From positions 1 through 63,925 of the forward strand of contig CAYSBR010000022.1 in the NCBI GenBank assembly GCA_964429385.1: a stretch of 63,925 bases of DNA, written 5' to 3'. Source of the DNA: an uncultured Opitutaceae bacterium (lineage in GTDB: Bacteria; Verrucomicrobiota; Verrucomicrobiia; Opitutales; Opitutaceae). The position numbers and the translations under genes are program-made. This document shows, piece by piece, positions 35,011 through 55,873 of this stretch (its first letter is position 1; every line of letters begins with the position of its first letter). Below the pieces are notes generated by a model. The model made no database searches and had not been told where the DNA came from. It saw nothing but the letters and a program-made list of their open reading frames with translations.

Positions 35011-36309
35011 TCAGTCGCGGGGGTAGTCGGGCCAGATGTCGCGGAGGATGTCCACGCGCTGGGCGAAATTGACCATCACGCTGGAGGGGGCGCGGACGAT
35101 TTTGCCGGTGTCGAAGGAGACGGTGCCGATGATGTTGCCCGCGTTGAGGATAGCGACGATCTCTCCCTTGGCGTTGAAGATGGGGCTGCCGCTGGCGCCG
35201 CCGGTGGCGCCCAGGCTGTGCTGCACGAGCAGGCGTTTTTCGTAGGAGGCCTGGGCCAGCCAGAAGTCGGTGGCGGAGGTGACGATGCCGGACTGCATCG
35301 TGGCGACGGGGCTGCGCACTTCCACGCCGCCGCCGGCCATGCCTTCCATCGGGAAGCCGAGGTAGCCGATGCGATAGCCTGAATCGAGCTTCTCCAGTTC
35401 GGCGCGTTTCGCGACCTTGAAGATCCGGGGCGCGCTTTCATCCGTGTGCAGCAGGCCGACATCGTAGGCTGCGACGGCGGGCTGCTTGCCCTCGAAGTTC
35501 AGCTCCGTCTTTTCATAACGCGGATGCACGACCGCCCGGGTGATGCGGATTTTTTTGTCGGGGTTGCGGTTGATGACGATGTAGGCGGAGCCGCCGTTCT
35601 GGATCACCTCAAGGACCGGTTTGGAGACGTGGGAATTGGTGGCGAAGACGCGCGGCCCCACGGCCCAGGCGGTGGCCATCGGCGTGGGCTGGCCGTTGGA
35701 GATATTGGGATGCACGATGACGACCAGGCCGACGGCGTCGGAGTAATCCTGCGCGACCTGGGCGAGGGCTTTTTCAGGCGCGGGTTGGAGGAAGCTGAGT
35801 TTGTCGCGGAAGAACCAGCCGGCGGCGGCGAGCAGCACGACGAGCACGGCGACGATGGCGATCACCGGGCCGGCTCCGCCGGACTTCGGGGCGGGGGCCG
35901 CGGGTGATTCCACGGGTGCGGGGGCGGGCTGGGCGGCGACGGGAGGAGGCGCGGCCCGGGTGGCGGCCGGGGCGGGGGTGGCCGTCGCGACGGGCGCGGC
36001 GGGGCCCGCAAAATCCACCCGGACCTTCGGGCCGCCGCGGCCCAGCTCCAGCACGGCGCCGGGGGCGAGTTTTTCCTGCGCGACCTTGCGGTCAGCAATG
36101 AAGAGGCCGGCCTTGCTCTGGTCCTTGATCCACCAGGCGCCGCCGCGGTGCTCCATCACGAGATGCCGGCCGGACACGGTCTTGTCCCACGTGGCGTCGA
36201 AGCGCAGGTCGCAGCCGGCTTCGGTGCCGAGCGCGATGCTGTCCTGATCGAGGGTGAGCGTCTTGTTGCGGTCGAAACCGGTGAGGCGGGTCAGGGTGAT
36301 GGAGGGCAT
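35011..36309 (-). CDS. FHA domain - single TM - trypsin-like (S1/DegP-type) serine protease fusion protein
   Basis: N-terminal FHA (IALGTEAGCDLRF...VSGRHLVMEHRGGAWWIKDQSKAGLF), Pro/Ala-rich linker, TM (VIAIVAVLVVLLAAAGWFF), protease domain with His (TNSHV), Asp (DVGLL) and Ser (GASGSPIF); ATG 36309. Confidence 0.75.
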   Translation of the reverse strand: MPSITLTRLTGFDRNKTLTLDQDSIALGTEAGCDLRFDATWDKTVSGRHLVMEHRGGAWWIKDQSKAGLFIADRKVAQEKLAPGAVLELGRGGPKVRVDFAGPAAPVATATPAPAATRAAPPPVAAQPAPAPVESPAAPAPKSGGAGPVIAIVAVLVVLLAAAGWFFRDKLSFLQPAPEKALAQVAQDYSDAVGLVVIVHPNISNGQPTPMATAWAVGPRVFATNSHVSKPVLEVIQNGGSAYIVINRNPDKKIRITRAVVHPRYEKTELNFEGKQPAVAAYDVGLLHTDESAPRIFKVAKRAELEKLDSGYRIGYLGFPMEGMAGGGVEVRSPVATMQSGIVTSATDFWLAQASYEKRLLVQHSLGATGGASGSPIFNAKGEIVAILNAGNIIGTVSFDTGKIVRAPSSVMVNFAQRVDILRDIWPDYPRD

Positions 36310-36335
36310 AAGGAAAAGATGGACTCCGATTGTCG

Positions 36336-36350
36336 GCAGGATACGTGCCA
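36336..36350 (-). promoter_or_regulatory. Putative sigma-54 promoter (TGGCAC-gtatc-CTGC, minus strand) for the FHA-protease gene
   Basis: Reverse complement of 36336..36350; correct spacing; -12 CTGC (3/4); ~27 nt before ATG 36309. Confidence 0.45.
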
Positions 36351-36413: not shown

Positions 36414-36428
36414 TGGCACGAGATTTGC
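36414..36428 (+). promoter_or_regulatory. Sigma-54 promoter, perfect consensus TGGCAC-gagat-TTGC(CA), 50 bp upstream of STK1
   Basis: Exact match to -24/-12 consensus. Confidence 0.75.
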
Positions 36429-36477: not shown

Positions 36478-38322
36478 ATGAACGATCTCGATTTTGGTGA
36501 AACCCTCAAAGGCTTCAGCCCCGGCCAGAAAGCTTTCAATCGCTACACGCTGAAGAAAATCCTGGGTCGCGGCGGGATGGGGATCGTGTGGCTGGGGCGG
36601 GACGAGGAGTTGGAGCGCGACGTGGCGCTGAAGTTCCTGCCGGAAGTGGTGGCCTTGGACAAAGAGGCGATCCGCGACCTCAAGCGAGAGACGCGGCGCT
36701 CGCTGGAGCTGACACACCCGCACATCGTGCGGATCTACGACTTTGTGCAGGATGCCCGCATGGCGGCGATCTCGATGGAATACGTGGCCGGGGATACCTT
36801 GGCCTCGCGGAAGGTGGATCACCCGGAAGGCCGGTTTGAAGTGGAGGAGCTGAAAGCATGGACGGGGCAGTTGCTGGAAGCGCTGGCCTACGCGCACGGG
36901 AAGGCGGAAGTGGTGCACCGGGACCTGAAACCGGCGAACCTGATGGTGGACGCACGGGGCGACCTTAAAGTGGCGGACTTCGGGATCGCGGCGAGTGTGA
37001 GCGACTCGGCCTCACGGGTCTCGGCGCAGGCGGGGACGAGCGGGACGCCGGTGTATATGAGCCCGCAGCAGATGATGGGGGAGAAACCGGCGGTGACGGA
37101 TGACATTTATGCGCTGGGGGCGACACTCTACGACCTGCTGACGGGGAAGCCGCCGTTCCACGCGGGAAATATCATTTTGCAGGTGCAGAACAAAGTGCCG
37201 CCGACGCTCACGGAGCGGCGGGCGGAGCTAGGGGTGAAGGCGGGAGCGATTCCGGCGGAGTGGGAAGAGACAATCGTGGCGTGCCTAGCAAAGGAGCCGG
37301 GCGCCCGCCCGCAGAGCGCGGCCGAAATGGCGGAGCGATTGGGGTTAACCACGAAGGATACAAAGAGCGCGAAGCGCATACAAGTTGAAGCAGGAGAATC
37401 GGGGGCCGAAGGCAGGGCGAAGCCGCCGGCTGAGCCGGTTCCCCAAGCCAAAATCGAAAAGCCAAAATCGAAGATTTCACCGCTGGCGCTCGCTGCCGGC
37501 GTGCTGCTGCTTGCGGGGGCGGGCTATTACTTCGGTTATTATGCACCCGCGCAGAAGCGTCAGACTCCGGAGGTGATTGAGCGGGAGAAAATGGAGGTGA
37601 GCGGTGGTCGTGCGGCCTACGATGTGACGCCTGATTTGATCAAGGGCCTCGGCCCCGGCGATGACATCACGCCCGTGCCAGTGGACGAGCGTCATGCGAC
37701 GGATGATGGCGGTCTTTATTATGCCGTGGCCATCAACGACCGCGCGCTCATGGCCCAGCGGCTGGCCGCCGGGGCCAACCCGCTGGAGGGCGGATTCATT
37801 AGCTCCATTTACGGCATCGGCATCGGTGCTCCGCTGCAAGCGGCCTTGCGGGATGGTCGCTTCCTGCTCGTCCGCGAATTGCTGCGGCGCAGCCCCAAGC
37901 CTGACCCGCAGGAGTGGAGGACGGTGGATGGGTACCGGATGAGCTTTGCGACGGCCTGCGGCACCGGCAACTGGGATATGATCCAGTTGTTCCTTGATTT
38001 TCACCCGGTCGAGTGGGAACTCGATGCCTGGCTTGGGCTGCTTGAGACCAAGAAGCCGGAACTGCTTGAGCGCGCTGTGAGGGCAGGCGCCGATCCTAAT
38101 TACCGTGACAATCGTTCAGGTGCGACGCCCCTGCATAAAGCAGCGGCGGATGGGTTTAATGATGCGGCCATGCTTCGCGCATTCATAAACTTGGGCGCGG
38201 ATATTAAAGCGAAAGACAAGAGCGGCAAACTCCCGTTCGACTTGCTGAGCGCCGATGCTCCCGCCGAGATCCGGCGGCTGCTCACACCGGCCGGTGGTCA
38301 AACAATGGGGGCTGGCCGTTAA
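36478..38322 (+). CDS. Hanks-type Ser/Thr protein kinase with TM segment and C-terminal ankyrin repeats (STK1)
   Basis: Kinase subdomains: GRGGMGIVW, VALKFLP, HRDLKPANLM, DFGIA, SPQQ(APE-like); TM ISPLALAAGVLLLAGAGYYF; C-term ANK (GATPLHKAAADGFNDAAMLRAFINLGADIKAKDKSGKLP). Confidence 0.9.
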   Translation: MNDLDFGETLKGFSPGQKAFNRYTLKKILGRGGMGIVWLGRDEELERDVALKFLPEVVALDKEAIRDLKRETRRSLELTHPHIVRIYDFVQDARMAAISMEYVAGDTLASRKVDHPEGRFEVEELKAWTGQLLEALAYAHGKAEVVHRDLKPANLMVDARGDLKVADFGIAASVSDSASRVSAQAGTSGTPVYMSPQQMMGEKPAVTDDIYALGATLYDLLTGKPPFHAGNIILQVQNKVPPTLTERRAELGVKAGAIPAEWEETIVACLAKEPGARPQSAAEMAERLGLTTKDTKSAKRIQVEAGESGAEGRAKPPAEPVPQAKIEKPKSKISPLALAAGVLLLAGAGYYFGYYAPAQKRQTPEVIEREKMEVSGGRAAYDVTPDLIKGLGPGDDITPVPVDERHATDDGGLYYAVAINDRALMAQRLAAGANPLEGGFISSIYGIGIGAPLQAALRDGRFLLVRELLRRSPKPDPQEWRTVDGYRMSFATACGTGNWDMIQLFLDFHPVEWELDAWLGLLETKKPELLERAVRAGADPNYRDNRSGATPLHKAAADGFNDAAMLRAFINLGADIKAKDKSGKLPFDLLSADAPAEIRRLLTPAGGQTMGAGR

Positions 38323-38339: not shown

Positions 38340-38386
38340 CGCCCGGAATGCCCTTCATCTTCTCCAACCGCCACGCGCGGAGCGCA
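38340..38386. repeat. Truncated copy (loop + right arm only) of the REP/MITE-like element, copy 4
   Basis: cttcatcttctccaaccgccacgcgcggagcgcacggtccac matches loop/right arm of copy 5. Confidence 0.6.
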
Positions 38387-38415
38387 CGGTCCACTTGTTG
38401 AGCAAGGAACAGGGG

Positions 38416-40059
38416 TTATGGTTCCAGCTTCACGCGCCAGGTGCGGGCGCCGAGGCGGAGTTGCTGGCCGGTGGCGAGGGGGGCGATCTCGCCGGGGCGG
38501 AGGGTGAGGCGATCCACTTGCACGGCACTGTTGGCGACAAGGGTCTCGATCCAGAAACAGCCGCGGTAGTGGTGGAAGCGGCCCTGGACTTCGGCCAGGG
38601 TCGGGTCGGAGGTCATTACAATGGCGTTGGAGCGGCTGGTGCCGAAGGTGCCGTCGGTGTGCAGCCAGACGGCGTTGAGCGGCTGGGCCTCCGGGGGGAC
38701 GACCTCGAAGCGCACGGCGCCGCGCAAGAGCGGGGGCGTCGCGGGCGGGCCGGCCCATTGCCGGGCGTTGCTGATCACGGGGTCGCTTTCCACGCCGGGG
38801 GGCACGCGGTCGAAATCCACCTCGATGGCGCCGGCGAGCAGCAGCCGCCCCTGGCGCGGCAGCTGGGTGCCGTTTTCATCGAGCGGCACGCCGTCGAAGA
38901 GGCTGCCGTTGGCGCTGGCGTTGTCGCGGAGGAGGATGCCGTCGGGGGTGATCTCGGCGATGGCGTGGACTTTGCTCACGCGTTTGGTCTTGTCGTCGTT
39001 GGCCGGGTTGCGCGGGAGCAGCCAGGAGACGAAGTCGGCCTCGGCCCGGCCGCGGCCGAGGCTGAAGCGGGGCCGGGCGACGAGGCGGAAGGGCAGCGGA
39101 GAGACGTAGGCGCCGACCGCCTCCAGCGTGCAAAGCCCGGCGGGCTGCACGGTGGCGAGCAGGGCGGAAGGCAGGTGCAGGCTGGAGGCGTGCGTGGCGG
39201 CGCGGAAACCGGAGTCGTGGCGGCTCACCTCGTAGTCGAGATCGAGGGCGATGCGCTGGAAATTCTCCGGCAGGTCGAGGTCGAGCAGGTCGTTGACGGA
39301 CTTGATCGCACCCTTGGCGATGAGATTGCTGATCTGCACATCGCCGTATTCCGCGCCGAGGGCCTGGTTGGCGCCGCCGCCGGTGTTGCTCTGAATATCG
39401 CTGATGTTGATGACGATGTTGGAATTGTCGGGCGCCTTGTAGAGGCGGAGCGGGTGCTGGCCGCGGTAGGCCAGTCGCTGGCCAGCCTGGTCCCAGGCGG
39501 CGGCGATCTGGATGACAAAATGACCGGCGCGCGCAGCCTCGACTTCGAGGAGGAGATCGGTGCGGCTGCCGGCGCCGAGCCGGCGGACGCGGGAGAGGGC
39601 TTCGCCGGCCAGTCCGCGCGAGCTGACATACAGCTCCAGGTTTTCGATGGCGGCGGCGGATTCGTTTTCCGCGCGGAAGACGAGGGTGCCGGCGTGGCCG
39701 GCCACGAGGGCGTGCGGGAGGTTGAGTTCCAGCACGAGCGGGCTCGGGTCGTCGTTGCCGGTTGGTTGCGACGGCGCAGACGCAGGGGGGCGGACGATGG
39801 GCGGCGGCGGAGCCGGGGGCGCTTCAGGGACCGCAGGAGTAGGCGGCGCCGGATGGGCCGGCGTGCTCAGGGTGGCGGGGGGCGGGTTGGCCTCCGCCTC
39901 CGTTTCAGAATGCGGCCGGCTGGAGCTGCGCGACACCGCAGTCGCCTGCAAGGGGGAGGTTTCCTCCACCGGGTCAACCGGGGTGGCGGTGCCGCAGGCC
40001 GGGCAGAAGCGGCTTTTGGGGGTGAGGGGAGTCTGGCAGGCGGGACAGAAGCGTGGCAT
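38416..40059 (-). CDS. Zinc-ribbon - Pro-rich linker - central domain - tandem FHA-domain protein
   Basis: N-term MPRFCPACQTPLTPKSRFCPACG (double Zn ribbon); C-terminal region with two FHA-like modules (FSLGRGRAEADFV...ITPDGILLRDNASANGSLFDGVPL and GTSRSNAIVMTSDP...GCFWIETLVANSAVQVD); alternative start 40083. Confidence 0.65.
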   Translation of the reverse strand: MPRFCPACQTPLTPKSRFCPACGTATPVDPVEETSPLQATAVSRSSSRPHSETEAEANPPPATLSTPAHPAPPTPAVPEAPPAPPPPIVRPPASAPSQPTGNDDPSPLVLELNLPHALVAGHAGTLVFRAENESAAAIENLELYVSSRGLAGEALSRVRRLGAGSRTDLLLEVEAARAGHFVIQIAAAWDQAGQRLAYRGQHPLRLYKAPDNSNIVINISDIQSNTGGGANQALGAEYGDVQISNLIAKGAIKSVNDLLDLDLPENFQRIALDLDYEVSRHDSGFRAATHASSLHLPSALLATVQPAGLCTLEAVGAYVSPLPFRLVARPRFSLGRGRAEADFVSWLLPRNPANDDKTKRVSKVHAIAEITPDGILLRDNASANGSLFDGVPLDENGTQLPRQGRLLLAGAIEVDFDRVPPGVESDPVISNARQWAGPPATPPLLRGAVRFEVVPPEAQPLNAVWLHTDGTFGTSRSNAIVMTSDPTLAEVQGRFHHYRGCFWIETLVANSAVQVDRLTLRPGEIAPLATGQQLRLGARTWRVKLEP

Positions 40060-40146
40060 GGCGGTCTCTCCGGCATAAGCCATACCAGTTGGGGAGAAAA
40101 TTCCAGCATCCTTTCCACCAATGATTTTTGGATTTCGGCTCGCGGT

Positions 40147-40161
40147 TGGCACAGCAATTGC
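40147..40161 (+). promoter_or_regulatory. Sigma-54 promoter, perfect TGGCAC-agcaa-TTGC, ending 12 nt before ATG 40174
   Basis: Exact consensus; implies a leaderless or near-leaderless transcript. Confidence 0.7.
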
Positions 40162-40173
40162 CGATATCCGCCC

Positions 40174-41019
40174 ATGATGATTCCAAATCGCTTTCTTACC
40201 TGCAAGCGGCTGGGGACGGCCGCCGTGGCCCTGTTTTTTTCCTGCCTGCTTGCCGCCCAGGGACCGGAGGATTCCCGCGAAGACCAGCAGGTGCGCGTGC
40301 AGATCACCGAGCTCGGCCTGCTCCGCACGCTCATCCTCATGGCGCCCGATTCGCAGGATCTCGCCGGGCAGGTGCGGCAACAGTTTGTGGACCGCGACTA
40401 TGAGGTTTACACCGACGCCCAGCGCATCTCGGGCCGCGTGACCTCGGCGCAGATGCGCGAGGCGGGCGAGTCGGAAAACGCCGACCTCGTCGTCTATGCG
40501 CGCATCGTCGGCGACCGCCGCCGCAGCAATGCCTCGGGGTTCAAGCTCTATGAGGCGACGGCGGGGGTGCAGGTCTTCAACCGGCTCACCGGCCGCGAGG
40601 TCGTGAGCAAGGAGGTGCGCGTGAGCGGCACCCGCCATCCCGATGAAATCGAGGCCCGGCGCTCGGCACGGGAGAAGGCGATGGAGCGGGCGACGCGCGA
40701 AGCCATCGAGGGCACGCTCGCCACGGCGCACAAGATCCTCGTGCACCATGCCGTCATCGTGAACGTCTTCAGCGAAAGCGGACTGCTCGCCCTCATGGAA
40801 TACATGGGGAAGATGGAAGGCGTCTATCACGTGAAGCGACTGGAGTTCGACCGGCAGACCAACGAGGCGCTCATCGAGATCATCGGCGAGCCGCGCTCGC
40901 AGACCTTCTGGCGCGCCTATCTGGAAAAGCTGCCCAAGACCAAGGTGAACGTGCAGGTGACGCCCAACGACAGCCTGCACAACAAGTATCCCGACTGGTT
41001 CCTGCCGCCCGCGCAGTGA
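40174..41019 (+). CDS. Secreted hypothetical protein (signal peptide MMIPNRFLTCKRLGTAAVALFFSCLLAAQG)
   Basis: In-frame ATG pair at 40174/40177 followed by a canonical signal peptide; 281 aa. Confidence 0.55.
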   Translation: MMIPNRFLTCKRLGTAAVALFFSCLLAAQGPEDSREDQQVRVQITELGLLRTLILMAPDSQDLAGQVRQQFVDRDYEVYTDAQRISGRVTSAQMREAGESENADLVVYARIVGDRRRSNASGFKLYEATAGVQVFNRLTGREVVSKEVRVSGTRHPDEIEARRSAREKAMERATREAIEGTLATAHKILVHHAVIVNVFSESGLLALMEYMGKMEGVYHVKRLEFDRQTNEALIEIIGEPRSQTFWRAYLEKLPKTKVNVQVTPNDSLHNKYPDWFLPPAQ

Positions 41020-44324: not shown

Positions 44325-44404
44325 GGGTGGGCCGTGCGCTCCGCGCGCGGCCCGGATGTGCTTCATCTTCTCAAAACCGCCGTGCGCGGAGCGCCCGGCC
44401 CACC
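44325..44404. repeat. REP/MITE-like palindromic element, copy 5
   Basis: Between convergent STK2 and bEBP stops. Confidence 0.85.
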
Positions 44405-46907: not shown

Positions 46908-47138
46908 ATGAAATCGCCGTTTTTTCCCCGTCTGCGCGCCGGCCTTGTCGCGGTGTGCGCCACCCTTTCCCTCACCGCGTGCTGGACGGTTGAAACCGGA
47001 CCGGGCGTGACGCCCGATCCCGATCAGCGCGGCACGGTTTACGGAGTCGAGCCGGAGCATGCGCCCATCCCGCAGAAAGAGGTGCCCGCCGGCGAGTCTT
47101 CCCTGCGCAAGCGGGGCCCGGACCAGCGGATCGACTGA
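46908..47138 (+). CDS. Small lipoprotein (lipobox LTAC), hypothetical
   Basis: MKSPFFPRLRAGLVAVCATLSLTAC; 76 aa; start could be 46899. Confidence 0.4.
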   Translation: MKSPFFPRLRAGLVAVCATLSLTACWTVETGPGVTPDPDQRGTVYGVEPEHAPIPQKEVPAGESSLRKRGPDQRID

Positions 47139-48742: not shown

Positions 48743-51364
48743 ATGGAAGATCTCGATCTAGGCGCGACGTTGCGGGGATTCACCCCCGGGCAAAAAGTAT
48801 TCAACCGCTACAAGCTGACGCGGATCCTGGGCCGCGGCGGCATGGGCGTCGTCTGGCTGGCGCGGGATGAGGAGCTGGAGCGCGACGTGGCGTTGAAATT
48901 CCTGCCGGAGATCGTGGCGCTCGACCCCGAGGCGCTGGCCGATCTCAAGCGGGAGACCCGGCGCAACCTGGAGCTGACACATCCGCACATCGTGCGGATC
49001 TACGATTTTGTGTCGGATGGCCGCACGGCGGCGATCTCGATGGAATACGTCAACGGCGCATCGCTGTCGGCGCTCAAGCTGGAGCGGCCGGGCCGGGTGT
49101 TTGATCCGGCCGAATTGAAGCCCTGGGTGGAGCAGCTGTGCACGGCGCTGACCTATGCGCATACGCGGGCGAAGATCGTGCACCGCGATCTGAAGCCGGC
49201 GAACCTCATGGTGACGACGGAGGGCGAGCTGAAGATCACCGATTTCGGCATCGCGCGCGGTATCTCCGACAGTGTCAGCCGCGTCAGCGCGCAGCTGACC
49301 GGCAGCAGCGGGACGCCGGTTTATATGAGCCCGCAGCAGATGATGGGGGACAAGCCGGCGGTGGCGGACGATGTGTATGCGGTGGGCGCGACGCTGTATG
49401 AACTGCTGACCGGAAAGCCGCCTTTTTACTCCGGCAACATCATCCTGCAGGTGCAGAACAAGGCCCCCGATCCCATCAATGCGCGTCGGGGCGAGCACGG
49501 CATCACGGGAGCGCCGGTGCCGCGCGCCTGGGAGGAAACCATCGCGGCCTGTCTGGCGAAGGAGCCGGGTGAACGGCCCGCGAGCATGCAGGAACTGGCC
49601 GCGCGCCTGATGGAGAAATCCGGGGCTACCGGTCCGGCGGTCTCCGTGGGGGCGCCGTCCGCGCCGGTCGCAGCTCCGCCGAAACTGGAGACGCCGCTTC
49701 CGCCGAAGACACAGGGAGGGGATGGTATTTCCGGCGTGCGCCGCTGGCTGCTGGCTCCGTTGCTGGCGTCGTTGTTGCCGGCGCTGGCCGGAGTGATGTT
49801 CCTGATCACATGGCGGGGCACGGGGGGCTATCTCCTGTATTGGCCGCAGCTGCTGCGCGAAGTGGGAGTGGTGTTTTTGGCGGGGGTTCTTTTCGCCTAT
49901 GCGGCGTTTGTGGCGGTGCTCGGCGTGCGGCGTCTTTTCCAGGGCCGGGTGCGGCCGTTTTTGGTGGGGGGCGGCGCCGTGCTGGGCGGGTTGAGCGCGG
50001 CGGGGTGGGTTTTCCTGCTCGCCGGCAATCGGGCGCAATGGCTGGCGGACACAGTCGGACACGTCCTGTTTCGGGAGGAAATCGTCCTGGGCGGGCTGTT
50101 CGGAATCCTGACCGGTGCGGTCAGCGGCTTAATTCTGAAGCGAGTGGCGTTTGGTGTGCCGGCCGGCCGGCCCTGGTTGCTGGCGGGCGGCATTGCCGGC
50201 GGGGTTTTCGCCGGCATGGCGGGCTTTGGTTTTCTGTTGCCGCACCAGTTCAATCGGACGCTGCAGGACGAAAGCAGCCGGCAGGTGCAGGCCTGGGAAG
50301 AGACCGAGCGGAGCACGCGCGAGGCGGCGGAGCTGGAGGAGAAGCGCCGGGCGCAGCAGCATGCGCTGGTGCTGGAGGCGGCCCGGCAGCAGACGGCGGC
50401 GCAGCGCGCCGTGCGCGAGCAGGAGGTGCTCGGGCTGATCCGCGAGGCGCACCGCATGGTCTTTGACCGGGCGCCCAGTCAGGAGGTCATCACTCATTTT
50501 ACCGGATTGATGCTGGAGGATCCCAGCTGGGATGCGGCGCGGCTGCGGCAGGAACTGCGGTCCACGCCGGCGGGGCGCGATGGCGGCCGGTTGCTGGTGC
50601 CCGAGGAATTCCCCACGATCTCCGCGGCGGTGGAGGCGGCCCTGCCGGGCAACGCGGTGCATGTCGCACCGGGCACTTACCGGGAGAAGATCCGCATCGA
50701 GCAGGCCATCCGCCTCATTGGCGCGGGCCGCGATCGCGTGACGGTCGAGGTGCCGGCCGATCGCAACGCCTTGCAGATTATAAAGGCCGATGGCGTGGTG
50801 GTGCGCGGTTTCACCTTCCGCCACACCTCCACGGCCGATACCGAGCGGCGTTCCTACCTGGTCAGCTTCGAGACGAGCCGGGTGGATTTCGAGGACAACG
50901 CCGTGCTCCAGGGCAACGGGGCGGGCATCGGGCTTGGCACGGATTCCAAGGTGAACATCCGGCGCACGCTCGTGCGCGGCCACCGCTGGGCGGCGATTTC
51001 GGTGCTGGAGAATGCCAGCGGCCTGATTGCCGACAGTGTGATTGAGAACAGCCAGCTCGGCCTTTCCGTGCGCCACACGGTGCGCGCGCTGGAAGTCACC
51101 GGCAGCCAGTTTTCCGGCAATCAATGGCAGGGCCTCTGGCTGGCGGAGGGGGACAATATCACGCTGACGGACAACCGTATCTCCGGCAACGGCACCCCGG
51201 GGTCGAACTACGGCGGCCTGGGGGTCGGCAAGGGCCGGCCGGTGCTGCAGGGCAACGTGTCCCGCGACAACATCGGTCCGGGCATCTGGTGGCAGGAAAC
51301 GGCTCAGCCGGTCATCCGCTCCGGCAACCTCAACGACGGCACGGCGCTGGCGGTGACGCAGTAG
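48743..51364 (+). CDS. Ser/Thr protein kinase with multi-TM region, coiled coil, DUF4214-like segment and C-terminal right-handed parallel beta-helix repeats (STK3)
   Basis: Kinase head as other STKs; 6+ TM helices (aa ~330-540); C-term repeats ...NAVLQGNGAGIGLGTDSKVNIRRTLVRGHRWAAISVLENASGLIADSVIENSQLGLSV... typical PbH1. Confidence 0.9.
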   Translation: MEDLDLGATLRGFTPGQKVFNRYKLTRILGRGGMGVVWLARDEELERDVALKFLPEIVALDPEALADLKRETRRNLELTHPHIVRIYDFVSDGRTAAISMEYVNGASLSALKLERPGRVFDPAELKPWVEQLCTALTYAHTRAKIVHRDLKPANLMVTTEGELKITDFGIARGISDSVSRVSAQLTGSSGTPVYMSPQQMMGDKPAVADDVYAVGATLYELLTGKPPFYSGNIILQVQNKAPDPINARRGEHGITGAPVPRAWEETIAACLAKEPGERPASMQELAARLMEKSGATGPAVSVGAPSAPVAAPPKLETPLPPKTQGGDGISGVRRWLLAPLLASLLPALAGVMFLITWRGTGGYLLYWPQLLREVGVVFLAGVLFAYAAFVAVLGVRRLFQGRVRPFLVGGGAVLGGLSAAGWVFLLAGNRAQWLADTVGHVLFREEIVLGGLFGILTGAVSGLILKRVAFGVPAGRPWLLAGGIAGGVFAGMAGFGFLLPHQFNRTLQDESSRQVQAWEETERSTREAAELEEKRRAQQHALVLEAARQQTAAQRAVREQEVLGLIREAHRMVFDRAPSQEVITHFTGLMLEDPSWDAARLRQELRSTPAGRDGGRLLVPEEFPTISAAVEAALPGNAVHVAPGTYREKIRIEQAIRLIGAGRDRVTVEVPADRNALQIIKADGVVVRGFTFRHTSTADTERRSYLVSFETSRVDFEDNAVLQGNGAGIGLGTDSKVNIRRTLVRGHRWAAISVLENASGLIADSVIENSQLGLSVRHTVRALEVTGSQFSGNQWQGLWLAEGDNITLTDNRISGNGTPGSNYGGLGVGKGRPVLQGNVSRDNIGPGIWWQETAQPVIRSGNLNDGTALAVTQ

Positions 51365-51420: not shown

Positions 51421-52236
51421 ATGAATACGCCGGGTAGCACGCTTTTCGAATGGACCGCCTTTTCCGACCTGGGGAAGCGGCGCAAGAACAACGAGGATGC
51501 GTGGGCGGCGTGGGCGCTCGGGGAGATCGTGGCCTGGATGCCGGCCGCGCCGCAGGTCTGGCCTGCCGCCGGTTTTTTGCTGGTGGTGAGCGATGGCATG
51601 GGCGGCGCGCTGGCCGGCGAGGTGGCGAGTGCGTTCTGCGCCAGCCGGATTGCCCGGGATTTGCATGTCCGGCGGAAGGAGCCGGATCGGGAAAAGGCCA
51701 TGCGCGAAGCATTTCTGGCCACGCATGAGGCGCTGATCGCGGAGGCGAGTGCCGATCCCACCCAGCATGGCATGGGAGCGACTCTGACCGTCCTGTGGCT
51801 GCTGGCGGACGGCGAGCTGATCTTCGGCCATATCGGGGACAGTCGTCTCTATGCGCGGCAGGACGGGGCGTGGCGGCTTCTGAGCGAGGATCAAAACGTG
51901 GGCGCCGGCATGATCCGGCGGGGCGAGATGACGGCGGCGGAGGTCAACCGGTTGCGTTATCGCTCGATGCTGGAGCAGGTGATGGGCGGCACCGGCGTGC
52001 CGTTATCGCCGCAGATCGGCCGCGGACGCTGGCAGCCGGGGGCGGCCTTTGCCCTTTGCTCGGACGGGTTGCACGGTCCTTTGGAACAGGGGTTGGAGGC
52101 GCGCTGGGAAACGGCCTGCTCCCGTGAGTCGCTGGAGGCGGGCGCCCGCGGGCTGGTGGACGAGGCGAACGAGGTGGGCGGTCCCGATAATATCACCGTG
52201 TTGCTGGCACGCTTCATGCCGGAAGCCCGGTTATGA
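51421..52236 (+). CDS. PP2C-family Ser/Thr protein phosphatase
   Basis: SDLGKRRKNNEDAW, VSDGMGGALAGEVAS, GHIGDSRLY, DNITVLLARF motifs (PPM metal-binding Asp residues). Confidence 0.85.
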   Translation: MNTPGSTLFEWTAFSDLGKRRKNNEDAWAAWALGEIVAWMPAAPQVWPAAGFLLVVSDGMGGALAGEVASAFCASRIARDLHVRRKEPDREKAMREAFLATHEALIAEASADPTQHGMGATLTVLWLLADGELIFGHIGDSRLYARQDGAWRLLSEDQNVGAGMIRRGEMTAAEVNRLRYRSMLEQVMGGTGVPLSPQIGRGRWQPGAAFALCSDGLHGPLEQGLEARWETACSRESLEAGARGLVDEANEVGGPDNITVLLARFMPEARL

Positions 52237-52610
52237 AAAACGACACTCTGCCCCGCGAACATCCGGCCGGCTCCGACTGGGAGCGGTTCCTGCGCGAGCG
52301 CAGTGCGCTGGGGTTGCCGGAGCTTGATCTGGCGATGCTCGGTCCGGGCGACCGTCTCGTGGTCGAGACCCTGCACACGCGCTACGGTTTTGAATGGAGC
52401 GAAGCCGACCGGGTGGAATTGACGACGAACCGCGCCGACCGCCCGAGAGGGCCGGTGCGTATTCAAGGGTGCGCATTTGGCCGCTCCAGCAGCATCAAGC
52501 CGCGGCATCTTTTTTGTGGCGGCAACCTGGAGTATCTTTCCGACAACGGGCGCCTAGTCCACCGCACCACGGCCATCCTCTCTCTCGTCCTGCTGCGCCG
52601 CAGCCGATGA
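52233..52610 (+). CDS. Small hypothetical protein translationally coupled between PP2C and STK4
   Basis: ATGA overlaps at both ends (52233-52236 and 52607-52610); 125 aa; no known domain. Confidence 0.4.
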   Translation: MKNDTLPREHPAGSDWERFLRERSALGLPELDLAMLGPGDRLVVETLHTRYGFEWSEADRVELTTNRADRPRGPVRIQGCAFGRSSSIKPRHLFCGGNLEYLSDNGRLVHRTTAILSLVLLRRSR

Positions 52611-52642: not shown

Positions 52643-55600
52643 ATGGACGATCTCGATCTCGGCGTCACCCTCAAGGGCTTCAGTCCCGGCCAGGTGGTTT
52701 TCAAACGCTTCACGCTTCAGCGCATTCTCGGTCGCGGGGGCATGGGCGTGGTGTGGCTGGCGCGGGATGAGGATCTGGAGCGCAACGTGGCGCTGAAGTT
52801 CCTGCCCGAGGTCGTGGCGCTCGATCGGGAGTCCGTGGCCGAGCTTAAACGCGAGACCCGGCGGAATCTCGACCTCACGCACCCGCACATCGTGCGCATT
52901 TACGATTTCATGCAGGATGCCGTCGCCGCGGCGATCTCAATGGAGTATGTCAACGGAGCTTCGCTCTCGGCATTGAAGGTGGATCAGGCCGCCGGCTTTT
53001 TTCCGCTGGCCGATGTGGTGCGGTGGGCGACCCAGCTCTGCGAGGCGCTGAGTTATGCGCATGGTTCGGCGAGGGTCGTGCATCGCGACCTCAAGCCCGC
53101 CAACCTCATGATTGATGCCGCCGGGGATCTGAAGGTCACGGATTTCGGCATTGCCTGCAGCATTGCGGACAGCGTCTCGCGGGTCTCGAAAGACATCGGC
53201 TCCTCCGGCACGCCGCTCTACATGTCGCCGCAGCAGATGATGGGCGAGCGCCCTACGCCGGCGGATGACATCTATTCACTGGGCGCCACGCTCTACGAAT
53301 TACTGGCGGGGAAACCGCCGTTCTACACGGGTAACATCATCCTGCAGGTGCAGAGCAAGACTCCGCCTTCGCTGGCCGAGCGTCGGCGGGAGTTGCAATT
53401 GCAAGCCGGGGAGGTGATCCCGGCCGAGTGGGAGATGGTGCTGGCCGCCTGTCTGGCCAAGGACCCGGCGGCGCGCCCGCCCTCCATCGCCGCGGTGGCG
53501 GCGCGCTTGAATCTGGCGGGCTCCTTTACGGCCTTTGTTCCCGCCGCGCCGGTGGCGTCTGCGGTCCCGCCCGAGCATCCGGTGGCGATCGCCGATGCGG
53601 CGCCGGTCAAGACGGCTGCGCCCGTGGCGGCGACGTCCGCACCGCGCCGGCCCAAGGGCGTGGTTTTCTGGGCCGGTCTGGCGGCGGGCATCCTCGTCGT
53701 TGCCGGGGCGGCCTACTGGCTCGGTGACGGCCCCAATCGTCTCAAGGCGGCGCAACGCATGAAGACGGCGCAGCAAGCGCTCTTCGCCGCGGATTGGCCC
53801 GCCGCCCTTATGGCCCTGCGCGATGCGGCATCACTGCGCCCGACGGATGCTGAATATCGCCGTGAGTTTGACGAGGCCCAGCGTCGTTGGGTCGAAATGG
53901 TGGAGCGGGAAATCCGCGACCTGGCGCCGCGGGCGGCGCATGACCGGCTGGTCAGCCGGGCCGAGGCCGCCATCGCTCTCGTCGAGCCGTACGCCGAAAC
54001 CTTTCGCCGGATGAGCACCCAGGCCGCGCACGCTGCGCGCGCCCTGGTGCAGAAGGCGGTGGACGAGGCGCGGGCATTGGGCGAGGAGTGGGAGCATGAC
54101 GCCGCCCTGGCGCGCCTGGACGAAGTGCGGGCTCATGCCGCCCTGCTGCCGGGTTTTGCCGATATTGAGCAGGGGTTGCGGCGGGATCGCGTGCGGGGTG
54201 GGATCGCCCAGGCGTGGGAGCAGGTGTATGAATGGAAATTTGCCGAGGCTTATGCGACGCTGGAGCCACTTCGCGCGGATGCCGCTCTCGCGGGGGATGA
54301 GTATGCCACCGTCTGGCAACAGGCCAGGGAGGTGGAGGTATTGGCCCGACTGGAAGAGGTGGAGCTGCTGGCCGGGTCACATCGCTACGGCGAGGCCCTG
54401 ATTGTGCTGACGCAGCTGCGGGCAGGAGATATTCTCCTGCACGAAGTGGAACGTAGCACGGCGTCGGTCAAGGCACTCGCCCAGGCTTTCAGTGTGGACC
54501 GGTTGTCGCGCGCCCTGATCGCGGGGCAGGCCGCCGAGGTGGAGGCGGCGTTGCAGGATTATGCGCGCTTCATCGAATCCCGTTTCGCGGTGACCGGGGC
54601 GGAGTTGACCGGCAGCCGGGATCTCCAGACTTTCCTGCGTTTCCTGGAAGAATTGCGCATGCGGCCGAAGGCCGGCGAGCCGCGGACGGATGGCCGGGAT
54701 ATCGCGCTGGTGTCGGCGGTGCGCGCGCGGTTTGCCGATGACGGAGCGGTGGCGCAATTTCTGCGCGAGGAGTTGTCCGGTTGGAGCCAAGTGGAGGAGC
54801 AGGCGGGCCGTCCGGGGCTGGCGCTTTATTTGCAAGCGGAGGCCGTTCGCGAAGGCGCCCCGGCGGATGCGGCGCGTGAAAACCGGTTGCGGGCGGCGCT
54901 CGCGGCCGATGTGGGCCTGCGGCTTTCCTGGGCGGCGGCCGACATCGAAGGCAAGGCCGCGGGTCCGTTGCGCACCGATGTCATCAAAGTCCTGCAGACA
55001 CGGGTGGAGCAGCGCCTCGCCCCGATCGCCCGGTTTGTATCCGCCAGCGACGGGCCGCGCACGTTGATGATCGCGACGGCGTTAAGCGGGCCGGCGGAGT
55101 CCGACAAACCCACGCGCCAACAGCGCACGGTGCGATACCAAAGCGGCACGCGGAATGTGACGAATCCCGATTATCAACAGCTTCAGGCGCAGTTGCGCTC
55201 CGCCGAGGACGAGGTGGCCCGGATGCAGAACGGCCTCGCGGCCGTGCGGGCGGAGGCCCAGCGGCAGGCGCAGCAGGCGGCGAACAGCGGCAATACCAAC
55301 TCGGCCATGGCGGCTTCGCTGTCGGGCGGCATTGGGATTACTCTGGCCCAGAACAATCTCAACCGGGCGGTCAACCACCGGAACGCGGTGCGCAATAATC
55401 TGCGCGACACCTCACGGACCCTGAGTGAGCCGACCTATGCCGACGAGCCTTACGATGTGGTCACCCATAATGTCACGTATTCCGCCGCGCTGACGGCCAT
55501 GCCGCAGGGCGCCCGCAGTCCCGCCCGGTGGACCGCGCAATTCGCGCACCAGACCACCGAGATCACAGGCAACGCCGCGCGCGGCGTTCCGGTGCAGGCG

Positions 55601-55873
55601 CCCGTGTATCCCGGCGCGGCGGAGATCAACCGGCGGCTGGCGGAACAACTGGTGGCACGCGTGGGCGATCTGGCGTCTTTGGAACGGAGCCTGGCGACGG
55701 CGGGCTTTGCCCTGATCAAGGAACAGGCGCCGTGGGGCAACGCGTCCGCTTTGGATCTGGCCGACGATCAGTGGGGGCTGCTCCTGCTTTGGCGCTCGCT
55801 CACGATTGAGCCGGGGGAAGCCGCCGAAATCGAGCAGGGGGTGAGGCTTGCGCTCGGGTTGCCGTCACGGTGA
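52643..55873 (+). CDS. Ser/Thr protein kinase with one TM and ~750-aa alpha-helical C-terminal region (STK4)
   Basis: Kinase head as other STKs (MDDLDLGVTLKGFSPGQ...); TM VVFWAGLAAGILVVAGAAYWL; alternative upstream start 52607 (MNREK...). Confidence 0.9.
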   Translation: MDDLDLGVTLKGFSPGQVVFKRFTLQRILGRGGMGVVWLARDEDLERNVALKFLPEVVALDRESVAELKRETRRNLDLTHPHIVRIYDFMQDAVAAAISMEYVNGASLSALKVDQAAGFFPLADVVRWATQLCEALSYAHGSARVVHRDLKPANLMIDAAGDLKVTDFGIACSIADSVSRVSKDIGSSGTPLYMSPQQMMGERPTPADDIYSLGATLYELLAGKPPFYTGNIILQVQSKTPPSLAERRRELQLQAGEVIPAEWEMVLAACLAKDPAARPPSIAAVAARLNLAGSFTAFVPAAPVASAVPPEHPVAIADAAPVKTAAPVAATSAPRRPKGVVFWAGLAAGILVVAGAAYWLGDGPNRLKAAQRMKTAQQALFAADWPAALMALRDAASLRPTDAEYRREFDEAQRRWVEMVEREIRDLAPRAAHDRLVSRAEAAIALVEPYAETFRRMSTQAAHAARALVQKAVDEARALGEEWEHDAALARLDEVRAHAALLPGFADIEQGLRRDRVRGGIAQAWEQVYEWKFAEAYATLEPLRADAALAGDEYATVWQQAREVEVLARLEEVELLAGSHRYGEALIVLTQLRAGDILLHEVERSTASVKALAQAFSVDRLSRALIAGQAAEVEAALQDYARFIESRFAVTGAELTGSRDLQTFLRFLEELRMRPKAGEPRTDGRDIALVSAVRARFADDGAVAQFLREELSGWSQVEEQAGRPGLALYLQAEAVREGAPADAARENRLRAALAADVGLRLSWAAADIEGKAAGPLRTDVIKVLQTRVEQRLAPIARFVSASDGPRTLMIATALSGPAESDKPTRQQRTVRYQSGTRNVTNPDYQQLQAQLRSAEDEVARMQNGLAAVRAEAQRQAQQAANSGNTNSAMAASLSGGIGITLAQNNLNRAVNHRNAVRNNLRDTSRTLSEPTYADEPYDVVTHNVTYSAALTAMPQGARSPARWTAQFAHQTTEITGNAARGVPVQAPVYPGAAEINRRLAEQLVARVGDLASLERSLATAGFALIKEQAPWGNASALDLADDQWGLLLLWRSLTIEPGEAAEIEQGVRLALGLPSR

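Follow-up and report, generated by a model that had tools for sequence, protein, structure and literature searches.

A cluster of approximately 21 kb (positions 35011-56242) in the DNA of an Opitutaceae bacterium, a soil or freshwater Verrucomicrobium, was found to encode four Hanks kinases, a PP2C phosphatase, an FHA-AAA+ sigma-54 activator, a Zn-ribbon-FHA protein, an FHA-like-TM-trypsin protease, and a Zn-ribbon-SPFH protein, as well as six or seven small secreted or unknown proteins. The whole stretch of DNA analyzed, 63,925 nucleotides in length, is called the window here. Genes were called from GC3 frame plots and inspection of start codons, and domains were assigned by Pfam profile searches supplemented with NCBIfam models. 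Independent gene calling gave kinase starts (36478, 42435, 48743, and 52643) identical to those of an earlier interpretation made without database searches (the sequence-only reading), and two small operon genes, at 46908-47138 and 52233-52610, were added to its description. The profile searches of the ORFs returned Pfam matches for the domain types it had named: kinase, FHA, PP2C, Sigma54_activat, Trypsin_2, Band_7, and Zn ribbon. The genes are listed below with their E-values and, for some, the related loci (L numbers) that carry orthologs.

35011-36309, minus strand: G1, FHA-like domain, one TM segment (149-167), and periplasmic trypsin-like protease domain (Yop-YscD_cpl, 2.7e-8; Trypsin_2, 3.8e-12)
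36478-38322, plus strand: STK1, Hanks kinase with one TM segment and C-terminal ankyrin repeats (Pkinase, 2e-46; Ank, 1.8e-9)
38416-40083, minus strand: G3, Zn ribbon, Pro-rich linker, and canonical FHA domain at approximately residues 340-415 (FHA, 1.6e-6; Zn_Ribbon_1, 1.4e-5)
40174-41019, plus strand: G3b, secreted protein or lipoprotein with a signal peptide (orthologs in L001-L003 and L019)
41048-41806, plus strand: G4, periplasmic protein with a signal peptide and a C-terminal TM segment (orthologs in L001-L003 and L019)
41844-42404, plus strand: G5, secreted protein, alternative start at 41811 (ortholog in L001)
42435-44273, plus strand: STK2, Hanks kinase with a DnaJ_C-like domain and three TM segments (Pkinase, 8e-49; DnaJ_C, 5e-11)
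44480-46138, minus strand: G7, sigma-54 activator with FHA, GAF-like, and AAA+ domains and a GAFTDA loop (Sigma54_activat, 8e-68; FHA, 2e-19)
46366-46899, plus strand: G8, lipoprotein (LAGC lipobox) comprising a disordered tether and an Ig-like beta-sandwich
46908-47138, plus strand: G8b, 76-aa lipoprotein (LTAC lipobox), conserved in L001-L006 and L011, where it likewise separates G8 from the SPFH gene
47175-48731, plus strand: G9, two Zn ribbons, SPFH/Band_7 domain, and long charged helical region (Band_7, 1e-13)
48743-51364, plus strand: STK3, Hanks kinase with five TM segments and a periplasmic right-handed beta-helix, NosD/CASH-like (Pkinase, 4e-46; Beta_helix, 8e-22)
51421-52236, plus strand: G11, PP2C/PPM Ser/Thr phosphatase (PP2C_2, 3e-17)
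52233-52610, plus strand: G11b, 125-aa protein whose orthologs immediately follow the FHA-trypsin gene in L015 (49% identity) and L018 (52%)
52643-55873, plus strand: STK4, Hanks kinase with one TM segment and a helical ectodomain of roughly 720 aa (Pkinase, 7e-48)
55877-56242, plus strand: G13, 121-aa protein called from GC3, last gene of its operon, membership uncertain

All four kinases proposed earlier matched Pkinase (PF00069), with E-values from 1e-46 to 1e-49 and scores of 159 to 167 bits (cutoff, 31.7). The catalytic motifs VALKF, HRD[LI]KPANL, and DFGIA aligned in each of the four and, judged by these retained motifs, the kinases look active. Their kinase domains were 70 to 75% identical and their C-termini unrelated, and the shared kinase module bears a signature N-terminal peptide. 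The C-terminus of STK4 matched no family in Pfam or NCBIfam. Full-length orthologs of STK2 were present in L001 and L002, and an ortholog of STK3 was present in L002; STK1 and STK4 had no full-length orthologs among six relatives. The number of kinases per locus ranged from 2 to 7 or more, with rapid turnover of both number and ectodomains, the latter differing even among close relatives, and the sensor domains of the relatives' kinases included PEGA, Sel1, FGE-sulfatase, and TonB_C.

Three FHA proteins had been claimed for the locus. A canonical FHA domain was present in the activator G7 and in the Zn-ribbon protein G3, but the domain of the protease G1 was non-canonical. It matched only Yop-YscD_cpl, a family of FHA fold, at 34 bits compared to a cutoff of 33.2, and its best NCBIfam match, the T6SS FHA protein TagH, was far below cutoff; G1 orthologs in L011 and L015 had precomputed FHA matches. 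The domain was conserved yet non-canonical in five of five orthologs, with the Arg after Gly28 replaced by Thr, Ser, or Ala and the Asn replaced by Lys, and because the main phosphate-binding Arg is missing, it may not read phosphothreonine (pThr). The His, Asp, and Ser of the G1 trypsin-like domain were present. The Zn-ribbon-2xFHA architecture given to G3 stood in part: its first FHA domain was solid (28.9 bits versus a cutoff of 20.7, with LGRG, SKVH, and ANG present), but the second, C-terminal stretch was weak (a Pfam stretch that appeared only at E<=5 and no PDB sequence match). The central region of G3 had no family match and the protein no TM segment, and its orthologs were found in L001 and L002 (68% identity), L018 (37%), and L019 (32%).

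The assignment of G7 as an FHA-AAA+ sigma-54 activator was borne out by matches to Sigma54_activat at 228 bits and to FHA (PF00498) at 70 bits. G7 retains the Walker A and B motifs, the R-fingers, and sensor II, and the phosphate-binding residues of its FHA domain (R34, S48, H51, and N70) were invariant or nearly so in 39 sequences. In an AF2 model (pLDDT 88), the FHA domain was joined by a disordered linker to a GAF-like alpha/beta domain, and a long helix preceded the AAA+ domain; in the family alignment, Thr124 of the otherwise variable linker was conserved in at least 90%. The loop at the position of the sigma-54-contacting GAFTGA reads GAFTDA, is near-invariant in the family, and retains the core F and T. 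The protein ends approximately 20 residues past sensor II. No HTH DNA-binding domain was found in G7, nor PF02954 in roughly 110 top homologues, and HTH_8 was missing from 37 of 37 aligned family members, whereas delta-proteobacterial outgroups (FHA-GAF-AAA-HTH_8) possess it. The lack of any DNA-binding domain in the activator family and its GAFTDA loop are additions to the sequence-only reading.

The description of G9 as a Zn-ribbon-SPFH protein was supported by a Band_7 score of 51.8 bits (cutoff, 23.6). No hydrophobic segment that would anchor it in the membrane was found, the N-terminus consisting of the two Zn ribbons, and 64% of residues 265-500 were E, K, R, Q, A, or L. The G9 family gave 116 matches, and all of those named by source were labelled Verrucomicrobiota. 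Two remote homologues, P0232 and P0235, were Zn-SPFH::Trypsin_2 fusions, which link two of the proposed outputs of the locus, SPFH and proteolysis, and the SPFH gene adjoined the FHA-trypsin gene in L011, L015, and L018. The PP2C phosphatase was likewise recovered in G11 (PP2C_2, 63 bits versus 24; motifs DGMGG, GDSR, SDG, and DN(I)T), the NCBIfam match being Stp1-like and below cutoff. The interleaved secreted proteins and lipoproteins were present as G3b, G4, G5, and G8, along with the newly called 76-aa G8b. G3b had no match in Pfam or NCBIfam, and G13 had neither a family match nor an ortholog in the fetched related loci.

The kinase operons had been placed directly behind consensus sigma-54 promoters, and perfect boxes were located at 36414, 40147, and 46292, all on the plus strand, all intergenic, and all just upstream of operon starts. 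The promoter features of the locus are as follows.

36336-36350, minus strand: sigma-54 -24/-12 box TGGCACGTATCCTGC with one mismatch, 27 nt upstream of the G1 start
36414-36428, plus strand: perfect sigma-54 box before STK1, with equivalents before kinase genes in L001, L004, L005, and L006
40147-40161, plus strand: perfect sigma-54 box before the G3b-G4-G5-STK2 operon
46196-46237, no strand assigned: conserved intergenic block containing the inverted repeat CCAAT-N17-ATTGG (TTGCCCAAT...), 55 to 95 bp upstream of the -24 element in a seven-genome alignment
46292-46306, plus strand: perfect sigma-54 box before the G8-G8b-SPFH-STK3-PP2C-G11b-STK4-G13 operon
52205-52219, plus strand: sigma-54-like box (one mismatch) that overlaps the end of the PP2C coding sequence and lies 13 nt ahead of the G11b ATG

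Perfect TGGCAC-N5-TTGC boxes occurred 3 times in the 64-kb window compared to 0.21 expected, and none of 100 shuffles reached 3. Over the window and the related loci (approximately 270 kb), 19 perfect boxes were counted compared to an expectation of approximately 0.6, extrapolated from 0.044 per 20 kb. Promoter boxes lay at orthologous positions in relatives, and all aligned boxes were 12 to 75 nt upstream of a gene start. At 40147, 12 nt separate the -12 GC from the ATG, and both box and spacing were conserved in L001-L003. The sequence TTGGCA(C/T)GG(A/G)CTTTGCC before the G8 operon was identical in four of seven genomes, with one base differing in each of L003 and L006. The box TGGCACGCATCCTGC, the counterpart of that at 36336, precedes the G1 orthologs in L001 and L002. 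The inverted repeat was not found before the other promoters; its presence upstream of one hints at a DNA-binding partner. The genes for G7 and G3 had no sigma-54 boxes in the window and are probably expressed constitutively, and in L011 the activator gene itself lies behind a perfect box. Opitutia possess sigma-54 regulons (PMC12316311). A sigma-54-like box was also seen ahead of amtB-glnK in the window.

The locus was syntenic, not scattered, in six Opitutaceae/Lacunisphaera genomes, as a functional unit had been expected to be. The core order in these relatives was activator, divergent sigma-54 promoter, lipoprotein, small lipoprotein, Zn-SPFH, and kinases, and in L011, L018, and L019, whose activators were 50 to 54% identical, the same gene set recurred in rearranged form behind perfect sigma-54 boxes. 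The recurring set consisted of the FHA-activator, paralogous kinases, Zn-SPFH, PP2C, FHA-trypsin, and Zn-FHA genes and the small genes G3b, G4, G8, G8b, and G11b. No kinase gene was near the distant activator homologue in L013, and no activator gene was within 10 kb of the Zn-SPFH gene in L017. The identities of all components drop together from L001 to L019, so the locus appears to be vertically inherited. Distant versions carried FHA::Peptidase_C14 (caspase-like), standalone FGE-sulfatase proteins, and LysM, and distant activator homologues adjoined glycoside hydrolases, a sulfatase, and a FecR/TonB-dependent receptor (L012, L013, and L011). In the remaining 43 kb of the window, profile searches of the ORFs found no kinase, FHA, PP2C, or T6SS gene. 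The surroundings of the locus were housekeeping genes with no mobile-element genes among them, and the flanking metabolic genes of the window were not kept at the relatives' loci. The domain content, the motifs, the conserved promoters, the conserved gene set, and the fusion are directly established.

We favor, with moderate confidence, the reading that the locus constitutes a single regulatory system, conserved in Opitutaceae and related Verrucomicrobiota, and is a self-amplifying circuit running from kinases through pThr and FHA to sigma-54, with PP2C as its reset; within it, we infer who phosphorylates whom, the logic of activation, and the physiological signal. Paralogous membrane receptor kinases with differing sensors would detect periplasmic or envelope cues and would phosphorylate threonines, either their own or those of partners. 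The soluble FHA-GAF-like-AAA+ activator would read this phosphorylation with its canonical FHA domain, either on the kinases themselves or on the activator's own Thr124, and the AAA+ ring would thereby be released. GarA/OdhI, in which a pThr in a flexible segment binds the protein's own FHA domain, is a precedent for the latter, and we hypothesize that Thr124 may be such a GarA-like switch. Lacking a DNA-binding domain, the activator would engage, from solution, the sigma-54 holoenzyme bound at the strong TGGCACG-N4-yTGCC promoters that precede almost all operons of the locus. The kinases, the protease, the SPFH protein, and the periplasmic proteins would consequently be induced together, amounting to positive feedback. 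The co-transcribed PP2C would remove the phosphorylation, giving delayed negative feedback. At the envelope, the putative actors would be the membrane-tethered trypsin-like protease, whose FHA-like domain faces the cytoplasm, a scaffold formed by the soluble, YdjI-like Zn-ribbon-SPFH protein, and four or five lipoproteins or other periplasmic proteins, with proteolysis or quality control and membrane organization as the likely effect. Proteolysis and the SPFH scaffold are placed here as outputs and may alternatively be regulators. Several points count against this circuit. The GAFTDA loop deviates from the sigma-54-contacting GAFTGA and may not be competent; an activator that cannot bind DNA would be expected to act on all sigma-54 promoters alike, so the circuit does not account for its own specificity; and if all of the kinases depend on the activator, some primer of the circuit is required. 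The missing Arg of the G1 FHA-like domain, the inverted repeat before one promoter, and the incomplete loci L013 and L017 also weigh against it, and rpoN was not seen in the 64-kb contig.

Each type of component is already known, and literature searches gave no account of such a locus, so the suggestion that the module as a unit had not been described held. The FHA-domain enhancer-binding proteins of Myxococcus xanthus, reportedly described by Jelsbak, Givskov, and Kaiser in 2005, resemble G7 in being sigma-54 AAA+ activators that begin with an FHA domain, in belonging to a kinase-rich genome, and in implying a Ser/Thr-kinase input to sigma-54 transcription. In contrast, the G7 family has a GAF-like middle domain, GAFTDA, and no HTH, and the kinases, phosphatase, and target promoters presumed to work with G7 lie in the same locus. 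The claimed resemblance to myxobacterial networks thus extends to the type of FHA activator but not to DNA binding. Helicobacter FlgR, Chlamydia CtcC, and Rhodobacter FleT are sigma-54 activators without a DNA-binding domain, and Chlamydiae, like Verrucomicrobiota, belong to the PVC superphylum. These three resemble G7 in that the AAA+ protein terminates beyond the lid/sensor II region and has to work from solution, but they are under two-component receiver control and are sole activators in small genomes, whereas G7 would be under FHA/GAF control. PpkA-PppA-Fha1 of the Pseudomonas aeruginosa H1-T6SS likewise encodes a membrane Hanks kinase, a PP2C, and an FHA reader together; unlike it, the island has no T6SS gene, several kinases instead of one, and sigma-54 transcription, a protease, and SPFH as proposed output. 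Membership in a T6SS threonine-phosphorylation pathway was rejected, as no T6SS core genes were found in the window or related loci, in line with the earlier statement that no T6SS or other machine is attached. The mycobacterial PknA/PknB-PstP-FhaA/FhaB cluster is also a conserved, envelope-linked set of kinase, PP2C, and FHA genes, but there is no orthology beyond shared domains and the island is without division or cell-wall genes. To our knowledge, mycobacteria have no sigma-54.

Bacillus subtilis YdjI, a soluble Zn-finger SPFH protein encoded in the envelope-stress operon pspA-ydjGHI (PMC8581546), resembles G9 in having no membrane anchor of its own, a zinc finger, and a stress-induced operon with membrane partners. 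Compared to YdjI, the Zn ribbons of G9 are N-terminal, the island has no PspA/IM30 gene, and it has sigma-54 and kinases, not sigma-W. A phage-shock (Psp) response was rejected: no island protein matched PspA_IM30 in Pfam, and the PspF NCBIfam models were far below cutoff. In HflK/C-FtsH and stomatin-NfeD/STOPP, an SPFH scaffold is genetically coupled to a membrane protease, as it is here by adjacency and fusions; G1, however, combines a periplasm-facing trypsin fold with a cytoplasmic FHA-like domain and is neither an AAA protease nor NfeD, and HflK/C, stomatin, and flotillin have an N-terminal membrane anchor (TM or hairpin), whereas G9 has none.

Duplicated single-pass receptor Ser/Thr kinases with periplasmic FGE-sulfatase, TPR, and other domains occur in Planctomycetota and myxobacteria (PMC11032199); in the island, by contrast, the paralogs surround a single dedicated FHA-activator, and many of them have a sigma-54 promoter to themselves. 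Lineage-specific tandem expansions of kinases that carry periplasmic sensors are common in the PVC superphylum and myxobacteria (PMC11032199), and the four kinases here are clear paralogs; the genes could be chance neighbors in a kinase-rich genome, where many such genes have been expanded by tandem duplication, and form no functional unit. We consider this very improbable: the non-kinase partners stay together across rearrangements, the shared promoters are far above chance, an SPFH-protease fusion exists, and the rest of the window (43 kb) contains no gene of these types. A role in sensing glycans or nutrients is unlikely. In this reading, the beta-helix, PEGA, FGE-sulfatase, and Sel1 ectodomains would let the kinases recognize polysaccharides or fragments of the cell wall, and the real targets of the activator would be distant catabolic or transport operons, the local promoters serving autoregulation. 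The ectodomain types are indeed carbohydrate-associated, distant activator homologues lie beside the glycoside hydrolases, sulfatase, and FecR/TonB-dependent receptor mentioned above (L012, L013, and L011), and an activator without a DNA-binding domain could in principle reach any sigma-54 promoter. However, no catabolic genes are conserved beside the locus, whose conserved partners are protease, SPFH, PP2C, and small periplasmic proteins, and the flanking metabolic genes of the window are not conserved in the relatives.

The turnover of the kinases could also mark surveillance or defense, with variable ectodomains as pattern-recognition devices for invaders or competitors, sigma-54 as amplifier, and the proteases and SPFH protein as effectors of an envelope-level or suicidal response, the FHA-tethered proteases being trypsin-like here and caspase-like (Peptidase_C14) in relatives. 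The 2 to 7 or more kinase copies, the ectodomains that differ between close relatives, the lack of full-length orthologs of STK1 and STK4 in six relatives, and the FHA::Peptidase_C14, standalone FGE-sulfatase, and LysM proteins of distant loci all agree with such a role, and FHA was counted among the effector-associated domains in a survey of conflict systems (PMC7159879). Against it, the locus keeps one chromosomal position amid housekeeping genes with no mobile-element genes, its inheritance appears vertical, with component identities declining together from L001 to L019, and its ectodomains are typical of carbohydrate or peptidoglycan binding. PADLOC gave only generic kinase-domain (PD-T4-6 and mad6), AAA+ (RtcR), and protease-domain matches and zero matches for the SPFH protein, PP2C, G3, and G3b; a known anti-phage system was rejected, no specific defense-protein model of PADLOC-DB having been matched. 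We therefore regard a defense role as improbable and retain the self-amplifying envelope circuit as the preferred reading.

A broader reading, which we consider doubtful, treats the locus as a bacterial equivalent of immunity or surveillance by receptor kinases. A rapidly evolving kinase array would act through pThr on three kinds of reader, among them the sigma-54 activator without a DNA-binding domain, which would amplify the entire locus, and FHA-tethered proteases (trypsin-like, and caspase-like in relatives), which would cooperate with a soluble SPFH cage, and the outcome would be envelope remodeling or a cell-fate decision. If true, this signaling logic would be new to bacteria, and the locus would be the first case in which cis-encoded targets reveal direct control of sigma-54 transcription by Ser/Thr kinases.

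Since the window is 66% G+C and raw ORF lists are therefore unreliable, genes were called from third-position GC, frame plots and start-codon context. The island at 35011-56242 was found to contain 18 genes in six transcription units.

Transcription units of the island
Unit 1, minus strand: G1, a protease (FHA-like, transmembrane [TM] and trypsin parts)
Unit 2, plus strand: STK1, a Hanks kinase
Unit 3, minus strand: G3, a Zn-ribbon-FHA protein
Unit 4, plus strand: G3b-G4-G5-STK2, small proteins followed by the second kinase
Unit 5, minus strand: G7, the activator (FHA-GAF-like-AAA+)
Unit 6, plus strand: G8-G8b-G9-STK3-PP2C-G11b-STK4-G13, with lipoprotein G8, Zn-SPFH protein G9, the phosphatase and two kinases

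Every domain named in the sequence-only reading was found by Pfam: four Pkinase domains (E 1e-46 to 1e-49), PP2C_2 in the phosphatase, FHA, Sigma54_activat and AAA_lid_14 in the activator, a Zn ribbon and FHA in G3, an FHA-fold domain and Trypsin_2 in G1, and two Zn ribbons and Band_7 in G9. No family match was obtained for G3b, G4, G5, G8b, G11b or G13, NCBIfam held no equivalog for any protein of the island, and Rfam detected no RNA family in the window. Hydropathy indicated that G3, G7, G9 and PP2C are soluble and that all four kinases are membrane receptors. Housekeeping or metabolic genes (AspRS, ExoD, transporters, amtB-glnK, enzymes of sugar and amino-acid metabolism, DcuC, SBP and PurL) make up the other 43 kb of the window. 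This part has no additional gene for a kinase, FHA protein, PP2C or secretion system, which agrees with the earlier statement that no T6SS is attached.

Four other features of the window were recorded. Four large ORFs in a row at 14217-21212 on the minus strand (1229, 480, 234 and 341 aa) have coding-type GC3 and no Pfam family. A soluble TPR-HisKA-HATPase histidine kinase (56247-58070, minus strand) is convergent with the end of the island; it was weighed as a candidate member of the unit, and the relatives' loci stop short of this point. Most island start codons are preceded by little or no Shine-Dalgarno sequence (e.g., 36478, 41048, 46366 and 47175). A REP-like palindromic intergenic repeat, GGCCGTGCGCTCCGCGCG, occurs in inverted pairs approximately 52 nt apart, with 9 matches to its arms in the window versus 1.3 expected; three copies lie between convergent genes at or within the island borders and may act as terminators.

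Promoter boxes and repeats
36414, 40147 and 46292, coding strand: perfect sigma-54 boxes, intergenic, 12-60 nt ahead of the first gene of the operon
36336, minus strand: one-mismatch box ahead of G1
52205: one-mismatch box, 13 nt from the G11b ATG
L001 10854-10868, L002 18375-18389 and L003 9403-9417: orthologous G3b boxes in three relatives
22948-23017, 25312-25380, 34687-34756, 38374-38391 and 44330-44400: REP-like repeat copies

The -24/-12 sequence TGGCAC-N5-TTGC occurs exactly three times in the 64-kb window compared to 0.21 expected, and none of 100 shuffles reached three. The boxes are kept at orthologous positions in relatives, as is illustrated by the 17-mer before G8, TTGGCACGGACTTTGCC, which is identical in four of seven genomes and differs by one base each in L003 and L006. 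Across the window and all related loci, 19 perfect boxes were counted in approximately 270 kb, versus approximately 0.6 expected by extrapolation from 0.044 per 20 kb. The 21 sigma-54 promoters of the window and the six Opitutaceae/Lacunisphaera loci (L001 to L006) share the extended consensus yTGGCACG-N4-yTGCC and, 12-16 nt upstream of TGGCAC, an AT-rich patch with the consensus AAATT that is 57-90% A+T in a genome of 34% A+T. Judged from sequence, the predicted sigma-54 promoters of the island are real, and the earlier claim that consensus promoters precede its kinase operons held. At the G3b promoter (40147-40176), exactly 12 nt separate the -12 GC from the ATG in four genomes, and the G3b mRNA is therefore predicted to be leaderless or nearly so. 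A leaderless mRNA is unusual for a sigma-54 promoter.

When the stretches ahead of the individual sigma-54 promoters were searched for a shared enhancer motif, only the AT-rich patch emerged. A block at 46196-46237, in the gap that separates the activator gene from the G8 promoter, is conserved in six to seven genomes and includes the inverted repeat CCAAT-N17-ATTGG (46207-46237), which is missing from the other sigma-54 promoters and confined to that of G8. This block might serve as an operator, as the promoter of the activator gene or as an enhancer bound by a further factor. A two-mismatch site at 46153 on the minus strand was considered as the activator's box and rejected for lack of conservation in relatives; the more distant locus L011 has a perfect one. 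No sigma-54 box was found for the activator or G3 genes in the Opitutaceae loci, and both are probably constitutive. A scan for sigma-70 promoters, which is uninformative for Verrucomicrobiota, gave 0 sites in the island versus 1.7 expected. Elsewhere in the window, a one-mismatch sigma-54 box, TGGCACAGGCTGTGC (6940-6954, plus strand), lies upstream of the ammonium transporter/PII pair amtB-glnK (6768-8825), consistent with a functioning sigma-54 nitrogen regulon in the source organism.

Synteny extended well beyond this contig. Activator orthologs are 69-84% identical in six Opitutaceae/Lacunisphaera MAGs, and in all six the core consists of the activator, the divergent sigma-54 promoter, the G8 lipoprotein, G8b, the Zn-SPFH protein and then kinases. 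The other flank carries G3/G3b/G4/G5/STK2 and G1 in L001 to L003 and more kinases in L004 to L006. When the activator is 50-54% identical, the same components recur in different gene orders. In L011 it lies divergent from a group made up of two kinases, G8-like, G8b-like, Zn-SPFH and PP2C genes and two FHA-trypsin genes, with perfect boxes ahead of the kinases and of the activator gene itself. The order in L018 is kinase, box, Zn-SPFH, FHA::Peptidase_C14, FHA::Trypsin_2, G11b ortholog, activator, box and G3 ortholog, and in L019 five kinases flank the activator, at a locus that also has two perfect boxes and orthologs of G8, G3, G3b and G4. Neighborhoods of more distant homologues (50% identity or less) vary, with kinases and PP2C in L012 and L014 and none in L013. 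Caspase-like Peptidase_C14 proteins are encoded in distant loci (L018 3369-5315, L015 12257-13633 and L016 13816-17475), in L018 fused to an FHA domain and adjoining the FHA-trypsin gene; no Peptidase_C14 gene occurs in the window.

The four kinases are 70-75% identical over their first ~290 residues and unrelated thereafter, with the catalytic Lys, HRD and DFG intact. STK1 has 1 TM and ankyrin repeats, STK2 a DnaJ_C-like domain and 3 TM, STK3 5 TM and a beta-helix, and STK4 1 TM and a 720-aa domain without a family match. They share the N-terminal peptide M-[DEN]-D-L-D-[LF]-G-x-T-[IL]-[KR]-G-F-[ST]-P-G-Q, and a somewhat wider version of this peptide is present in 29 of 29 kinases at the locus in eight genomes. 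The four are true paralogs with swapped sensors. Within 21 kb there are six kinases in L005 and seven in L006, and the ectodomains of the relatives' kinases include PEGA, Sel1, FGE-sulfatase, TonB_C and multi-TM NMN-transporter-like types. Since the ectodomains vary and no full-length orthologs of STK1 or STK4 were found in L001 to L006, kinase content turns over while the non-kinase partners stay.

The activator was compared by family alignment and with an FHA-GAF-AAA-HTH_8 protein of Deltaproteobacteria. Its FHA domain is canonical (R34, S48, H51 and N70), its middle domain is GAF-like, its AAA+ module is intact, and nearly all family members have GAFTDA as their sigma-54 contact loop. The protein ends ~20 residues past sensor II, and HTH_8 was found in none of the ~110 best database matches. 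In an AF2 model (pLDDT 88), the FHA domain (8-101) is followed by a disordered linker and a short helix, then by a GAF-like alpha/beta domain (135-255), and finally by a long helix (263-303) and AAA+. The linker is otherwise variable, but its T124, part of the motif [EQ]-T-x-x-x-R, shows at least 90% conservation in the family alignment, and from this we infer only a candidate phospho-acceptor.

Two proteins described earlier required revision. For G1, read as an FHA-TM-trypsin protease, the FHA fold, TM and Trypsin_2 domain stood, and hydropathy indicates a single TM, with the FHA-like domain in the cytoplasm and the protease domain outside; its protease triad is present, as are the PP2C metal motifs of the phosphatase. 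Its FHA-like domain is strongly conserved but non-canonical, with the key Arg replaced by T/S/A and Asn by Lys in five of five orthologs. G3 had been assigned two FHA domains; one is canonical, and the second, weak in Pfam, is unconfirmed, since a PDB sequence search with the C-terminus returned nothing useful. The same was true of a PDB search with G9, which has no membrane anchor and a charged helical tail of 236 residues. The Zn-SPFH family is small (116 hits, with all source-named hits labeled Verrucomicrobiota) and keeps kinase neighbors in L015, L016 and L017, where no activator lies within 10 kb; a perfect box is directly upstream of the Zn-SPFH gene in L017. Two remote members are Zn-SPFH::Trypsin_2 fusions, classical fusion evidence which argues that the SPFH protein and protease work together. 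No informative structural neighbor was obtained for G8, which is a tethered Ig-like sandwich.

Each part is of a known kind. The activator part is known from FHA-activators of Myxococcus, the kinase-phosphatase-FHA parts from the PpkA/PppA/Fha1 and PknB/PstP/FhaA modules, and G9 plus the protease from SPFH-protease pairs; like G7, FlgR and CtcC are activators without a DNA-binding domain. Receptor-kinase expansions are known in the PVC superphylum (PMC11032199). Bacillus subtilis YdjI, of the pspA operon, is a soluble Zn-finger SPFH protein recruited by membrane partners (PMC8581546); G9 resembles it as an anchor-less SPFH protein with Zn, but no PspA gene is present at the G9 locus. Assignment to a known defense system was rejected, as PADLOC gave only generic domain matches. 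Full-text searches found no description of this combination of parts, as had been proposed, and neither NCBIfam nor PADLOC has a model for it. The island is a conserved, lineage-specific system joining several kinases, an FHA activator and sigma-54, and its unusual features are an activator with GAFTDA and no DNA-binding domain, per-kinase sigma-54 promoters, an anchor-less Zn-SPFH protein and a non-canonical FHA domain on a protease. The original observation is confirmed and its interpretation supported.

In the mechanism that we infer throughout, receptor kinases would generate phosphothreonine read by the FHA-activator, which would fire the sigma-54 promoters of the locus. This would give positive feedback, braked by the co-induced PP2C, and the site of action of the induced proteins (protease, SPFH protein and periplasmic proteins) would be the envelope. 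It demonstrates no new principle.

To our knowledge, the route from Hanks-type kinases to transcription in Gram-negative bacteria is largely not worked out, and we know of no defined kinase, phospho-site or target promoter for the myxobacterial FHA-bearing sigma-54 activators, listed since 2005. Here, candidate kinases, phosphatase, reader and target promoters lie side by side, conserved across the family, and the full path (which kinase, threonine and promoter) is therefore directly testable. Because sigma-54 is also used elsewhere in the genome, an activator family that works with no DNA-binding domain poses a specificity problem. The locus also ties SPFH scaffolds genetically to FHA-tethered proteases and includes several conserved Verrucomicrobiota-specific proteins without assigned function. 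Most of the organisms are uncultured, and all parts belong to domain types already known. What the locus offers is a well-posed model system, and no new principle unless a surveillance reading is true. As a testable case of sigma-54 transcription under Ser/Thr-kinase control, the locus is unusually clean.
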